64,000 nucleotides of DNA from the sequence record OL960580. One strand, written 5' to 3'. The notes under the pieces are model-generated. The model had not been told where the DNA came from. It saw only the letters and a list, made by a program, of their open reading frames with translations, and did not search any database. Of the stretch, positions 2,002-39,288 are shown one piece after another. Both the position numbers and the translations under genes were made by a program. This DNA comes from Escherichia phage vB_EcoM_SA21RB. How positions within the stretch are numbered: the stretch's first letter is position 1; every line of letters starts with the position of its first letter.

Positions 2002-2188
2002 TATCTAAAATGTTGAAGTTAAAAGATACAGCCCAGTCAGTGCAGACCGTAACCTTTTTAATACAATTATCTTCAACCTCTAACGGTTCAAACCAATATT
2101 CAATAATTTCTTTATGACCAATATCATCTTTTACTTCGCATTCAAAATGCTGGCTCATCATAACATTTTTAAATTCATCAAAAGTCAT
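1925..2188 (-). CDS. hypothetical small protein between genes 47 and 46
   Basis: 87-aa ORF overlapping gp47 stop by 4 nt; overlaps next ORF so true start may be internal. Confidence 0.4.
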   Translation of the reverse strand: MTFDEFKNVMMSQHFECEVKDDIGHKEIIEYWFEPLEVEDNCIKKVTVCTDWAVSFNFNILDNDTPKSLQDMAVSCIKDAYCEVFDI

Positions 2189-3204
2189 TGTGTTGCCTCT
2201 ACATATAACTGATTTGCATATTGAATAAGTGCTTCGCGGTCAGAATCAGTGATGTCTGGAATTGCATTAATGTATTCTTCCATCAACGTCTGAAGAGATT
2301 GAACTTCAACTTCTTCACTATCATCTGACTCGACAGAGTTATCAATCTTTGACACAACTCGTAATGAATGCACAACTTTTTCTAGTTCAGATTCGAACTT
2401 CGTCAGATTTTTGTCTACCTCAGTTACTATAACACGTACTGATAGATTTGTAAAATCTTTATAGTCAATTTTTCCCTTAAATGGATATTGAATTCGACGA
2501 TGCCAGGTAGTGTTGTTTGGAATAAATTCCATTCGTTCTGTTTCTGTATCAAACACCCAGAACCCACGAGGGTCATTCTCGTCACCTGCAGTTAGTGTCC
2601 ATGGTGTCCCAATATATCTGACGTTAGCAGCCTCAGAGATAGTATGGAAGTGACCAGACCACACCTCTTTATAAGTCTTAAGGAAATCAGGTTCAAGACC
2701 GTGAGATTTCATTCCTTTATAAAAATAAAATCCATTCAGTTCCCAGTGACCAACACAAAAAGAAGCAGATGAAGTTTTGATGTGTTCAAGAATTTCACCA
2801 GTATTTTCTTCGCACATCCAAGGAATTAAATCAATCAAACATCCGTCAAAATCTACTGTAGTAGGCTTATCATATACTTTAACATTAGGATATTTAGCCA
2901 AAAGCTCAGTAGAAGCATTTGGAGTTAAAGTATTTTTAAAGTGCATATCATGGTTTCCTACAACAGTATGCAGGGTAATACCAGCATCATCAAGCATTTG
3001 AACTATTTCACGGGCGAACTCCATAGTTTTATGCGTGATTGCTTTTCGCACATCAAAAATATCGCCGTATTGAATCCATGTAGTAATTCCATTTTTCTTA
3101 GAATATTCTATTGCTTGTTTAATTCCATCCAACTGAATGGATTGAATCCACTCATCATCGGCTTTAACACCTAAATGCCAATCACCTAAATTTAAAATTT
3201 TCAT
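2185..3204 (-). CDS. 47: recombination endonuclease subunit gp47 (SbcD/Mre11-like phosphoesterase)
   Basis: 339 aa; N-terminal MKILNLGDWHLG and GDIFD/GNHD calcineurin-like phosphoesterase motifs; immediately upstream of gp46. Confidence 0.92.
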   Translation of the reverse strand: MKILNLGDWHLGVKADDEWIQSIQLDGIKQAIEYSKKNGITTWIQYGDIFDVRKAITHKTMEFAREIVQMLDDAGITLHTVVGNHDMHFKNTLTPNASTELLAKYPNVKVYDKPTTVDFDGCLIDLIPWMCEENTGEILEHIKTSSASFCVGHWELNGFYFYKGMKSHGLEPDFLKTYKEVWSGHFHTISEAANVRYIGTPWTLTAGDENDPRGFWVFDTETERMEFIPNNTTWHRRIQYPFKGKIDYKDFTNLSVRVIVTEVDKNLTKFESELEKVVHSLRVVSKIDNSVESDDSEEVEVQSLQTLMEEYINAIPDITDSDREALIQYANQLYVEATQ

Positions 3205-3364
3205 ATATCAAGAACCGTCATTGAAATGCAAAATAAAATTATTGAAATAAACCCATCTGGTGTGCTAAAGAACCCAATCCAACATGCTCTAGTGAATAGA
3301 TAAAACGCAAGAAAAAGTATCACATATCCAAGAAATATCATTATATCAAACTCCGTATAAAGCT

Positions 3365-3382
3365 AAAGGGCCGAAGCCCTTT
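3365..3382 (-). terminator. hairpin terminator after a-gt
   Basis: GGGC-CGAA-GCCC stem-loop overlapping the a-gt stop; weak U-tract. Confidence 0.45.
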
Positions 3383-30470: not shown

Positions 30471-30944
30471 TTATTTGAATGATTTGACGTACTGAATAGA
30501 ACCTTTACTATTCACGAAAGCGATTTTACCATTTTTATTATACATGGTAGCAGTACGCTGATAGCCATAAGTTTGTTTACCAGATTGATAACCAACTAAT
30601 GCGAAATTATCTTCACCCATTTTATTCTGTTTAGCGCGAATACGTTCATGACCGTGTGCCATAAGAACCTTAGCATCACCAGTTGCAATGGATCGACGAG
30701 TTTTTTCATCTTCAACTGTATTAACAAAGTCGTCAAATGAATCAAATTTAGCATGAGATTTATTATACAGTTTTCCATCTACTGCATAATTATATCCTTG
30801 TACATCCATCTCAACTTCTGTACCATCATCCAATACAGCAGTGATTTTCTGACCTTTTTTAAATTTCAAAAGATCAGTAAAAGATTCAGCAATAATTTGA
30901 GAATTAATAGCTGCTTCAGTAATAAATTCTTGATATGTTTTCAT
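30471..30944 (-). CDS. internal-protein-like protein with capsid targeting sequence
   Basis: 157 aa; N-terminal MKTYQEFITEA (T4 internal-protein targeting peptide with L/I-x-E cleavage motif); adjacent to ipIII. Confidence 0.65.
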   Translation of the reverse strand: MKTYQEFITEAAINSQIIAESFTDLLKFKKGQKITAVLDDGTEVEMDVQGYNYAVDGKLYNKSHAKFDSFDDFVNTVEDEKTRRSIATGDAKVLMAHGHERIRAKQNKMGEDNFALVGYQSGKQTYGYQRTATMYNKNGKIAFVNSKGSIQYVKSFK

Positions 30945-35907: not shown

Positions 35908-35944
35908 GTTGTATAGTACCATGGAAGAACAGGGATGTAAACCG
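35908..35944 (-). promoter_or_regulatory. T4 early promoter
   Basis: minus strand GTTTAC ... TGGTACTATAC. Confidence 0.6.
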
Positions 35945-36075: not shown

Positions 36076-36100
36076 AAAAAGCCCTATCATTTAGATAGGG
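36076..36100 (-). terminator. rho-independent terminator
   Basis: minus strand CCCTATCTAAATGATAGGG followed by CTTTTTGG, after ORF 36109-36672. Confidence 0.6.
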
Positions 36101-36108
36101 ATTTAAAA

Positions 36109-36672
36109 TTATTTATCTAGTTTAGTTATTATAGCTTCTGCGGCAGCTTTTAGCTTAGATGCGGTGTTAATACGATTTTTAATTTCAGTATACGCATCGC
36201 CAAGAACATCAAGGCTATCAGAATAAACACTTACACTATTGCGTTCGCTATTTGAAATAGAACCTTTAGTTTTACGATCAAAATCGGTGTACACGTCTTG
36301 AAGATCACGGGCTGCCTTCTTTGCATCATCCAATGCGTCAAGAGCTTTATTCAAAGCATTAACGTATTTTTTAGTGTCAAACATATTCTTAGAAATTTTA
36401 ACAGGTGCGCGTTCAGGAGTAGCTAATGTAGATTTAGGAACCTGAGCGCCAGATGCCAATTTCTTAGAAATTTTGAAAAACGCTTTATTGAATTTATTTT
36501 CTTGACTCATCGTAAAAGAACTATTATCGATGTTGTACATTTCAATAGCTTTAGCTTTCCACTTAAGAAAATCGCCGCGGTCTTTTGGGTCCAAGTGGAA
36601 GAATACTTTAGTAAGATCTGCTTCAGATGGTAATTTTGCTGCTTCGGTTAAAAATTCGGCATAGGTTTTCAT
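36109..36672 (-). CDS. internal-protein-like protein with capsid targeting sequence
   Basis: 187 aa; N-terminal MKTYAEFLTEAAK resembles the T4 internal-protein targeting peptide; terminator hairpin downstream. Confidence 0.55.
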   Translation of the reverse strand: MKTYAEFLTEAAKLPSEADLTKVFFHLDPKDRGDFLKWKAKAIEMYNIDNSSFTMSQENKFNKAFFKISKKLASGAQVPKSTLATPERAPVKISKNMFDTKKYVNALNKALDALDDAKKAARDLQDVYTDFDRKTKGSISNSERNSVSVYSDSLDVLGDAYTEIKNRINTASKLKAAAEAIITKLDK

Positions 36673-36762
36673 TTAAAATCCTTGAAATAATTTATCAGTT
36701 GGTTATTAATTATTTATTACTTTGTTATTATCCGTAACAGCATTCTCTATGTGATTCAAACT

Positions 36763-36789
36763 AAAAAGCCCAACCTTTCGGTTGGGGCT
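36763..36789 (-). terminator. rho-independent terminator (repeat copy A)
   Basis: minus strand AGCCCCAACCGAAAGGTTGGGCT + TTTTT; near-identical copy at 37321. Confidence 0.7.
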
Positions 36790-36796
36790 AAGAATG

Positions 36797-37270
36797 TTAT
36801 TTGATTTGTTTAGCAGACCAAATGCGGTCTTTGATGATTTTTTGAATGTCTTCAACATACTCTAGGTCATGAGCATGTGGGTTATCTTTGAAACTATAGG
36901 CACGGGCTAACTTTTGGCCTTCGGTTTTGATTACTAAAAGCTCTTTAAGGATAGCTTCATACTTAGCGATAATTCCTTTAACAATATTTTTTTCTTGTGT
37001 AGCTTTAGGATCTGCTTTAGGAGCAGGTTTACCCGAAGCCTTTGCAAAAGCAGCACCAGTAGCAACTAAACTTTTCCAGGCCATACTAACCGCATTTCCC
37101 GTAAATCCTTCTGCTTTCATGTCGCGAGCAAATTGGAATCGTGATTCGTCAGAAGCATCTTTATAGGAATATTTACCTGCTGCAATGGCTGCTTTTGCGA
37201 CAGCTTGAATTTCGGTGCTAGATGCTTCATTTAACACCGCTTCATTTAAAAATTGAGCATATGATTTCAT
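36797..37270 (-). CDS. internal-protein-like protein with capsid targeting sequence
   Basis: 157 aa; N-terminal MKSYAQFLNEAV; flanked on both sides by near-identical terminator hairpins. Confidence 0.55.
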   Translation of the reverse strand: MKSYAQFLNEAVLNEASSTEIQAVAKAAIAAGKYSYKDASDESRFQFARDMKAEGFTGNAVSMAWKSLVATGAAFAKASGKPAPKADPKATQEKNIVKGIIAKYEAILKELLVIKTEGQKLARAYSFKDNPHAHDLEYVEDIQKIIKDRIWSAKQIK

Positions 37271-37320
37271 CTTATTTCCTGTTTTAATTCGTAGATTTAA
37301 TATACTACTATATTTATACT

Positions 37321-37348
37321 AAAAAGCCCCAACCTTTCGGTTGGGGCT
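37321..37348 (-). terminator. rho-independent terminator (repeat copy B)
   Basis: minus strand AGCCCCAACCGAAAGGTTGGGGCT + TTTTT. Confidence 0.7.
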
Positions 37349-37396
37349 AAGCCTTGCGGCAACCTTGTCGGGGTTCCACCTGCTAAGGCAAGTGTT

Positions 37397-37490
37397 TGTA
37401 CGAAACGCCGGGATTCGAACCCGGTTATTAAGCAGTTGACGCTACTTAATATTTTTAAAAGGCCATATCTCGACCATATCCGAACGTTCC
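37397..37490 (-). ncRNA. tRNA-like element / small stable RNA candidate
   Basis: canonical T-arm (CCGGG-TTCGAAT-CCCGG) followed by a 7-nt 3-prime acceptor strand that pairs with CGGAACG about 85 nt upstream, but no regular D or anticodon arm; lies downstream of tRNA-Arg. Confidence 0.3.
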
Positions 37491-37664
37491 GTCAAAAACG
37501 CTACTCGGCTTACGGCAAAGATATTTCCTCGAATCGATAATTCGGTGCGCCGTTTCTGCTGTGGTGTAAGGGGATATTAATAAATCGTAAAGATTTATTA
37601 AGACCAGTCCTTACGCAGGGAACATCAGTCCGACGACTTACCGGTAGCGACCCGGTTTCTTGTT

Positions 37665-38772: not shown

Positions 38773-39288
38773 TTAAAGCAAATTAAACATCTTAACGGTC
38801 GGCAAAACAATTTCTTCTTCTATATAAGAGTATTTAACACTCTCAACTACACGCAAAAAATCATAATCATAATATTCAGAAGCACTGCCTAAAATATTAA
38901 TAAGTCCTTCAAGCACTTTATTACCATTCACAAAGAATAAGTCAAATACACGTTCTTCGTCTTCTTCGGATTTATTACCAAGGTCAACTTCTATATCAAA
39001 GACCTTTTTAATGAATTCTGGATAAAGCTGGTCTGAGAACAGTCCTTCAACCAAGTATTCATAGATAAAAAGCGATTGCTCGCTGAACAAACCATTACCG
39101 CAATAACGTTCAACTTTTGTGCTAGAATGTCTGCTTTTAAACTTCTTTAAAAGATATTGGAATTGTAAGATTTCATGCTCTTCTACGCCAAACAGTGTTT
39201 TAGTTTTATAGTTGTCACCATCATTTTCCCAGGTAGTGACATCAATTACGTAACCCTGCGGAATTGTAGTACCTAAACAAATATTCAT
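38773..39288 (-). CDS. hypothetical acidic protein
   Basis: 171-aa ORF upstream of the tRNA cluster. Confidence 0.5.
   Translation of the reverse strand: MNICLGTTIPQGYVIDVTTWENDGDNYKTKTLFGVEEHEILQFQYLLKKFKSRHSSTKVERYCGNGLFSEQSLFIYEYLVEGLFSDQLYPEFIKKVFDIEVDLGNKSEEDEERVFDLFFVNGNKVLEGLINILGSASEYYDYDFLRVVESVKYSYIEEEIVLPTVKMFNLL

Follow-up and report, generated by a model that had tools for sequence, protein, structure and literature searches.

A variable site between e.8 and rnaC as a probable third internal protein locus of Tequatrovirus phages

The closest described counterparts of the genes discussed here are the polymorphic internal protein (IP) loci of T-even bacteriophages (ipI and ipII/ipIII, with IpIV–IpVI in phage PST). 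As later summaries of Repoila et al. 1994 have it (PMC2839356, PMC12373910, PMC9026906), these loci code for small, non-essential and basic proteins that share only a leader of about ten residues, the capsid targeting sequence (CTS); the number and identity of the CTS-bearing open reading frames (ORFs) vary between close relatives, and each ORF is flanked by conserved blocks of transcription and translation signals that probably mediate the shuffling. Within the leader, targeting depends on residues 4 and 7 and processing on residues 8 and 10, the protease gp21 cutting after L/I-x-E, and foreign proteins are packaged once they carry the first 10 residues of IPIII (PMC9026906). Here we describe two CTS-bearing genes, g1 and g2, in a 64,000-nucleotide (nt) stretch of Escherichia phage vB_EcoM_SA21RB (OL960580) that is called the window below. 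They lie between e.8 and rnaC, and we consider it likely that this site is a third, variable IP locus of Tequatrovirus, composed of two late-gene cassettes with portable linkers whose products would be packaged through their CTS and injected.

Two further bodies of work serve for comparison. In promoter early stem-loop (PeSL) cassettes a variable ORF is enclosed by two copies of a terminator-plus-promoter unit (Arbiol et al. 2010; Comeau et al. 2014; PMC2839356). As to function, Ip1, Ip2 and Ip3 each inhibit a distinct GmrSD type IV restriction enzyme (PMC12373910), and the CTS protein Bas37_0260 inhibits McrBC (bioRxiv 10.1101/2025.11.20.689424). In the full-text literature, which represents Repoila et al. 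1994 through later summaries, we found no paper on g1 or g2; the general principle of cassette shuffling is, according to those summaries, already described in that study.

The top DNA matches of the window are Tequatrovirus phages, with identities of up to 98.3 %, which places it in this genus. A preliminary description drawn from the sequence had proposed two ORFs beginning with IP-like targeting peptides, and both are present exactly where it put them. It had also counted up to five targeting-peptide genes; a scan of all six frames of the window for the start motif MK[ST][YF]x[EQK]F returned exactly these (30471, 30986, 36109, 36797 and 40225). In the direction of transcription the order is tRNA operon, rnaC/rnaD-like region, hairpin A, late promoter, g2, hairpin A', spacer, g1 and hairpin B, the elements of the variable part being as follows.

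37318–37351, minus strand: repeat copy A, AGCCCCAACC-GAAA-GGTTGGGGCT followed by T5, with the stem-loop at 37321–37348 (pattern search and folding)
37311–37318, minus strand: T4 late-promoter consensus TATAAATA, 2 nt past the T-run of hairpin A, the g2 ATG following about 40 nt downstream
36797–37270, minus strand: g2, coding for a CTS-bearing protein of 157 amino acids (aa) that starts MKSYAQFLNEAV, MKSYAQFLNE/AVLNE/ASS (ORF and motif scan)
36760–36792, minus strand: repeat copy A', which is hairpin A with a 1-nt deletion and starts 4 nt past the g2 stop codon (pattern search and folding)
36711–36718, minus strand: AATAAATA, a late-promoter-like octamer with one mismatch, about 40 nt upstream of the g1 ATG
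36109–36672, minus strand: g1, coding for a CTS-bearing protein of 187 aa that starts MKTYAEFLTEAAK, MKTYAEFLTE/AAK (ORF and motif scan)
36077–36100, minus strand: hairpin B, the terminator of g1 itself, CCCTATC-TAAAT-GATAGGG followed by CTTTTT (hairpin 36082–36100, −10.5 kcal/mol)

The site is variable among relatives. In a search set of 50,697 phage records, 701 share part of the 1.6-kb region and have its flanks in common. The whole region with both genes is found in 127 records, g1 in 164 (all 95–99.6 % identical) and g2 in 494 (60–99 % identical), so that among about 700 related phage genomes some 37 have g1 alone and several hundred g2 alone; these frequencies are BLAST counts in the phage collection and not a per-genome classification. 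The hairpin occurs in 683 of the records at 1082 places, about 399 records having two copies. Sixty records taken at even spacing down the ranking divide into 23 with g2 only, 11 with both genes, 3 with g1 only, 5 with g2 next to a different left neighbour, 6 with an empty site and 12 that share only the rnaC side. Individual phages represent each class: the site is empty and has a single hairpin in T4, T2, T6 and PST, RB18 and fPS-2 have only g2, G3F7 has only g1, and G50 resembles the window in having both; GRNsp7 combines g2 with an unrelated gene for a 184-aa membrane protein. All four states of presence and absence are thus observed, in keeping with the dispensable and variably present nature of internal proteins. 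The cassette behaviour suggested in the preliminary description is borne out as well: conservation of both genes and both hairpins in all relatives, which would speak against it, is not seen.

The limits of these states coincide with the hairpins. The direct repeat reads ACTAAAAAGCCC(C)AACCTTTCGGTTGGGGCTAAG and measures 34 nt in copy A and 33 nt in A', one deleted C/G being the sole difference. In the 64 kb the 28-nt hairpin pattern occurs only at 37321–37348 (0 mismatches) and 36762–36789 (3 mismatches arising from the 1-nt deletion), the chance expectation being 0 in 100 shuffles. Hairpin A (−20.6 kcal/mol, z −4.2) has a 10-bp stem with 7 GC pairs; because of its deletion A' is less stable (−13.5 kcal/mol), and it is intact in two relatives (L014, L021). 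All three hairpins score as intrinsic-terminator-like sites. The tRNA/rnaC unit has A as its terminator, and A also marks where the g2 cassette begins on the upstream side; A' is the g2 terminator and the downstream border of that cassette. The bracketing by near-identical terminator hairpins that had been proposed therefore holds for g2, but g1 lies outside the repeat and ends in the different terminator at 36082–36100. Hairpins A/A' and B have in common a 9-nt terminator end, GGGCTTTTT, and it is this element that bounds the g1 cassette.

The junctions can be read directly from the relatives. In the transcription orientation RB18 has GCAAGG-CTTAGCCCCGACCGAAAGGTTGGGGCTTTTTGGTAT-AAATAAG...g2 on the hairpin A side and AACATT-CTTAGCCCCGACCAAAAGGTTGGGGCTTTTTGGTAT-CTAGGCC on the A' side, and T4 and PST have GCAAGG-one repeat-CTAAGCC, that is, the left flank of A, a single repeat and the right flank of A'. 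G3F7 is joined in the same precise manner, having lost g2 and kept g1. The g1 cassette extends from AGTTTGAATC to GATAGGGCTTTTT and is bounded by GGGCTTTTT at the 3' ends of A' and B. Comparison of T4 and RB18 with G3F7, G50 and the window thus puts the empty-site junctions of g2 exactly inside the 34–36-nt repeat and those of g1 inside GGGCTTTTT. A crossover within the hairpin repeat would yield exactly the junctions of T4 and G3F7. Since the repeats coincide with the deletion or insertion junctions of the relatives, they would act as portable recombination linkers. An earlier study had noted GGGC/GCCC motifs where T4 deletions end (Mosig et al. 1998, as cited in PMC2839356).

The expression signals would suit self-contained late cassettes. 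On the minus strand of the 64 kb, TATAAATA has only 8 occurrences; the one behind hairpin A is followed by an AGGA Shine-Dalgarno site ahead of g2, and the arrangement TTTTT(n0-3)TATAAATA is conserved in relatives across genera, including Klebsiella phage KP01. The 90-nt spacer between A' and g1 holds AATAAATA and a Shine-Dalgarno site. Since AATAAATA takes the place of TATAAATA before Mosigvirus-type g2 alleles, it is a possible weak late promoter for g1. The g2 cassette would accordingly be made up of hairpin A, the late promoter TATAAATA, the Shine-Dalgarno site, g2 and hairpin A', and the g1 cassette of the spacer with its AATAAATA-like element, the Shine-Dalgarno site, g1 and hairpin B. 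With the hairpin repeats and the GGGCTTTTT ends as linkers, cassettes could be lost, regained and re-paired, leaving the neighbouring transcription units undisturbed.

The likeness of the hairpins could also have a different origin. They might resemble each other only through selection as efficient terminators, with no role in recombination, the g1/g2 states arising from homologous exchange in the long conserved flanks on the e.8 and rnaC sides during co-infection, possibly through co-conversion driven by the SegB homing endonuclease of the nearby tRNA cluster. Related GC-rich hairpins with a GAAA loop do occur at many gene borders of the locus in several genera, the motif therefore being generic, and flanks that are 93–98 % identical over hundreds of genomes offer ample homology for whole-allele exchange of the locus. 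Moreover, T4 and PST, two phages with an empty site, have segB beside it, and SegB is reported to drive preferential inheritance of the T4 tRNA region (Brok-Volchanskaya et al. 2008, as cited in PMC4122927). However, flank exchange spreads configurations and cannot create the empty and single-gene states, the junctions of which lie precisely in the 34–36-nt repeat or in GGGCTTTTT with no bases extra or missing; GRNsp7 has segB yet keeps g2; and both copies in the window share the rarer CCCCAACC where most relatives have G, which suggests that the copies interact. We regard flank exchange as an unlikely sole origin of the variability and retain the hairpins as linkers.

The two hairpins of the window (36762–36789 and 37321–37348) carry CCCCAACC with an A-U pair, a rarer variant; most relatives have CCCCGACC, with a G-U wobble, in one or both hairpin copies. 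This shared derived state hints at gene conversion between the repeats.

The g2 and g1 cassettes can now be set against the PeSL type. As there, a terminator-plus-promoter unit stands on both sides of a variable ORF, a relative that lacks the ORF keeps exactly one unit (T4/PST as compared with RB18, G3F7 as compared with G50 and the window), and the cassettes are predicted to be transcriptionally insulated. Unlike in PeSL, the promoter is of the T4 late type (TATAAATA) and not sigma-70-like, no sigma-70-like site being present at either hairpin; the stem-loop precedes the promoter, instead of lying within or after it; and the repeat measures about 35 nt (33–36) as opposed to about 100 bp. The cassettes also recall the morons of lambdoid phages, in which one gene, equipped with a promoter and a terminator, likewise stands between two transcription units that are conserved. 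Morons are believed to enter a genome with no conserved linkers at their flanks (PMC2839356), whereas the borders here are conserved repeats, and genes of the g2 family are long-standing at the site across genera. With the T-even IP loci the site shares the small, basic, dispensable products with a common leader of about ten residues, the variation in gene number and identity and the signal blocks flanking each ORF; it differs in that g1 and g2 occupy a third position (e.8–rnaC) and are unnamed in databases.

Several points weigh against a third IP locus built on such linkers. Singer et al. reportedly found in 1982 that homologous recombination in T4 is efficient from roughly 50 bp. At about 35 nt the repeat is below this length, so that the events would be rare or might rely on flanking homology in mixed infection instead of on the repeat. 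Gene g1 has no perfect late promoter and would depend on AATAAATA or on read-through from g2 across the weakened A'. The IP-associated elements of Arbiol et al. are PeSL analogues with early promoters and weak AT-rich stems, confined to two loci, with IP genes absent elsewhere (PMC2839356), whereas the g2 linker combines a late promoter with a strong GC-rich terminator. Finally, g1 and g2 resemble neither Ip1–3, nor any Pfam or NCBIfam family, nor any solved structure.

The proteins themselves have the features expected of packaged T4-type internal proteins. Y4, F7, L8 and E10 are present in both g1 (MKTYAEFLTE) and g2 (MKSYAQFLNE), which accounts for the targeting residues, and the gp21 site L/I-x-E falls at residues 8–10 in each (L-T-E10 in g1, L-N-E10 in g2, the latter with a second L-N-E15). 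The mature forms are small, basic and rich in lysine: about 19.7 kDa with an isoelectric point (pI) of 9.5 (9.46) and 14.7 % Lys for g1, and about 16 kDa with a pI of 9.4 (9.40) and 13.6 % Lys for g2, as compared with pI 9.70 and 12.0 % Lys for IPIII and pI 9.02 and 13.2 % Lys for IPI of the same window. Since the ratio of nonsynonymous to synonymous substitution rates (dN/dS) over several alleles is 0.02–0.14 for g2 and 0.02–0.13 for g1, both are under purifying selection and are real genes. AlphaFold predicts the leader to be disordered in both proteins. In the poor g1 model (pLDDT 57) it is followed by a small helical N-domain and, beyond a Pro/Lys-rich linker, by a helical hairpin at the C-terminus; g2 (pLDDT 75, of moderate confidence) is predicted to have a three-helix N-domain, a P/K linker and likewise a C-terminal helical hairpin.

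Similarity searches yielded one family. Both proteins match phrog_2280, listed as of unknown function, over their full length (1e-59 for g2, 1e-53 for g1), and phrog_2280 alone matches, neither PF11634 (IPI_T4) nor the IpII/IpIII PHROGs being found. In Pfam and NCBIfam no family scored above threshold, the hits (Cytochrome b562 and TraA among them) being noise, and Foldseek found no match of the g2 model in the PDB at E ≤ 0.001.

It could be argued that g1 and g2 are not encapsidated at all, their conserved 5' end being a recombination or translation-initiation block at the DNA level and the proteins remaining cytoplasmic late in infection. In favour of this, 80 of 80 sampled GenBank records label them “hypothetical protein” or “Phage protein”, phrog_2280 is of “unknown function”, and the site is outside the two classical IP loci. 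These loci (denV–e and trna.4–57B) do not contain g1 or g2, but this is a positional convention rather than a functional requirement. Against it, conservation is at the amino-acid level and concerns exactly residues 4, 7, 8 and 10, synonymous and neighbouring positions being variable among the leaders compared (MKSYAQFLNE, MKTYAEFLTE, MKTYNEFLNE and MKFKEFLAE); the IPIII leader is sufficient for packaging foreign proteins (PMC9026906); and the basic, Lys-rich composition and, for g2, the late-promoter consensus are shared with known IPs. A cytoplasmic role is in our opinion quite improbable, and from the sequence features we infer that g1 and g2 are capsid-packaged internal proteins. The 10-residue CTS would dock them onto the scaffolding core of the prohead, the prohead protease gp21 would then remove it after L-x-E(10), and the basic proteins of about 16 and 20 kDa would be packed with the DNA and injected at the next infection.

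How old are these residents of the site? Three other lineages have genes of the g2 family at the same position, directly behind the tRNA/rnaC terminator and ahead of e.x genes. In Mosigvirus SA35RD the gene is flanked by two more diverged hairpins; in Klebsiella phage KP01 GGGCTTTTTAGTATAAATAT is conserved and the downstream terminator is unrelated; and contigs from IMG/VR, a scan of which with e.8 gave 10 loci, form the third lineage. As for g1, contigs of about 170.5 kb code for a 205-aa CTS protein (JS98-type) beside e.8 that aligns with it over the full length (27 % identity, E 5e-5), and an exhaustive search of 1.8 billion proteins added one further distant relative (P0028, E 1.6e-6). Since relatives of g1 and g2 occupy the site in other genera, the empty state of T4, T2 and T6 is more likely a loss than ancestral, and comparison of the sequences indicates that both lineages are old residents. 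The insertion of a moron, as the preliminary description had envisaged, is thus the wrong direction for g2, whose family is at the same spot in Mosigvirus, in a Klebsiella phage and in the 170.5-kb contigs; the empty sites are likelier deletions. A recent gain of g1, considered in view of its 95–99.6 % identity everywhere, was dropped given the distant full-length relatives next to e.8 in other genera. In one locus (L015) g1 is paired with a Mosigvirus-type g2 allele (75 % amino-acid identity), and alleles have therefore been re-paired.

The relationship between the two genes is less direct than their tandem arrangement suggests. BLASTP and profile-profile comparison (hhalign) of g1 with g2 align only the 10-residue CTS, and without it the E-value is 0.25, for which reason a simple tandem duplication was not adopted; all members of the family, including bridging proteins, nevertheless match phrog_2280 over their full length, and the JS98-type protein also aligns with g2 (E 9e-8). 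KP01-type and fHe-Yen9-01-type proteins join a g2-like N-domain to a C-domain like that of the JS98-type, with its TPDLY motif (E 4e-6 for the KP01-type C-domain against the JS98-type), and since the KP01-type combines these two domains we read phrog_2280 as a domain-mosaic family. Mosaic members with swaps around a Pro/Ala/Lys-rich linker include P0010, P0011 (L009, 4001–4534), the protein at 2760–3377 of L017, and P0028. It is very improbable that a single IP gene was duplicated locally along with its terminator and that the copies then diverged, the repeated hairpin being a relic and not a mobile linker: the full-length matches of g1, g2 and the bridging proteins to phrog_2280, the alignment of the JS98-type protein with both and their similar predicted architectures favour such an origin, but g1 and g2 align directly in the CTS alone, the repeat brackets g2 rather than separating equal units, g1 ends in a different hairpin, and both lineages of this mosaic-looking family are already separate in other genera.

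With the linker-bounded cassettes of Tequatrovirus as the starting point, a wider reading can be put forward more tentatively, and we would not yet bet on it. The e.8–rnaC site would be an unrecognised third IP locus that is conserved across the Tevenvirinae (Tequatrovirus, Mosigvirus, the 170.5-kb contigs and Klebsiella T4-likes). It would be home to a single mosaic family (phrog_2280) of injected proteins, in which N- and C-domains are reassorted around the Pro/Lys-rich linker and whose cassettes are exchanged by means of a “terminator plus late promoter” unit, the late-gene counterpart of PeSL.

The surroundings of the site follow the T4 gene order on the minus strand, in agreement with the ORF map and gene products of the annotated T4 record NC_000866: an IP gene at the ipII position, ipIII, e (lysozyme), nudE, e.2–e.8, the tRNA cluster, ipI, 57B, 57A and gene 1. 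The g1/g2 site, between e.8 and the rnaC/tRNA operon, is about 3 kb from either classical IP locus. Its flanks comprise three elements.

37349–37664, minus strand: stable-RNA region of the rnaC/rnaD type, closing the tRNA operon on its 3' side and lying upstream of the cassettes, near-identical to T4 rnaC/rnaD in NC_000866
37665–38686, minus strand: cluster of 11 tRNAs (tRNA search)
35913–35941, minus strand: sigma-70/T4-early-type promoter for e.8, TTTACA, 17-nt spacer, TG-TACTAT (site scan)

The early promoter of e.8, about 140 nt beyond hairpin B, is the conserved right-hand flank of the variable site; an early promoter has been independently annotated at the same e.8 position in Yersinia phage fPS-2. 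Rfam has no family for the hairpin or for the rnaC/rnaD region, only the tRNAs being matched. These are Arg, His, Asn, Tyr, Met/Ile-CAU, Thr, Ser, Pro, Gly, Leu and Gln, T4 having 8, and the homing-endonuclease gene segB is absent from inside the cluster of the window. A 351-bp ORF between rnaD and tRNA-Arg is found in G50 and RB18 and is absent from the window and from T4.

Further variable elements were encountered in and around the site. The 184-aa predicted membrane protein mentioned above (MKLLKYLSW..., phrog_2143, unknown function) has no CTS and is encoded by a further cassette at the e.8–rnaC site (1902–2456 in L005 and about 2136–3380 in the IMG/VR loci L016–L020). Its order varies, the gene preceding the IP gene in L017 and L019 and following it in L018, L020 and GRNsp7, and it is bounded by GGCCCTTCC-GAAA-GGTTGGGCC hairpins that, when upstream of a gene, are followed by TATAAATA. 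In Escherichia phage vB_Eco_F26 (L007, OP870145), a tandem duplication of about 350 bp at 1201–1560 reaches from the 5' end of e.8 across the intergenic region and hairpin B into the 3' end of g1, giving a truncated extra g1 fragment; it could be either real or an assembly artefact. On the other side of the tRNA cluster, a 171-aa ORF (38773–39288, minus strand) lies directly downstream of tRNA-Gln and ahead of trna.2/3/4-like ORFs. It is without counterpart in the T4 record, a 516-bp ORF takes the equivalent place in Mosigvirus SA35RD, and the interval from the tRNA cluster to ipI has a variable cassette as well. The gene at the T4 ipII position (30471–30944, minus strand) codes for a 157-aa CTS protein (Pfam DUF7412, phrog_3155) and is not ipII, which in T4 has 100 aa; the Krisch laboratory, in annotating Yersinia phage PST, named its 474-bp equivalent ipIV. 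The phage of the window thus has an alternative configuration at the classical ipII/III locus, too.

What g1 and g2 do on entering a cell can be approached only by analogy. They have in common with Ip1 (IPI*), Ip2, Ip3 and Bas37_0260 the CTS, the gp21 motif, the basic composition, putative late expression signals and a patchy distribution in Tequatrovirus; unlike those inhibitors of type IV restriction, however, their mature parts have no similarity to them in sequence or fold. By this analogy the injected proteins may neutralise host defences at DNA entry, and we give about even chances to g1 and g2 being injected inhibitors of specific host defences. Since every functionally known T-even IP blocks one specific restriction enzyme at DNA entry, the set of IPs that a phage carries helps to set its host range. 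About 490 sequenced phages have g2 and about 160 have g1, with many phage-therapy isolates among them, and flagging both as probable injected proteins provides two concrete candidates for anti-defence screens. The precise junctions also offer a clean natural example, of a principle that is not new, of how terminator repeats would let T4-like phages add and drop insulated cassettes. If the site is indeed a third IP locus of the Tevenvirinae, g1 and g2 would be new specific inhibitors of host defences in hundreds of coliphages that are therapeutic candidates.

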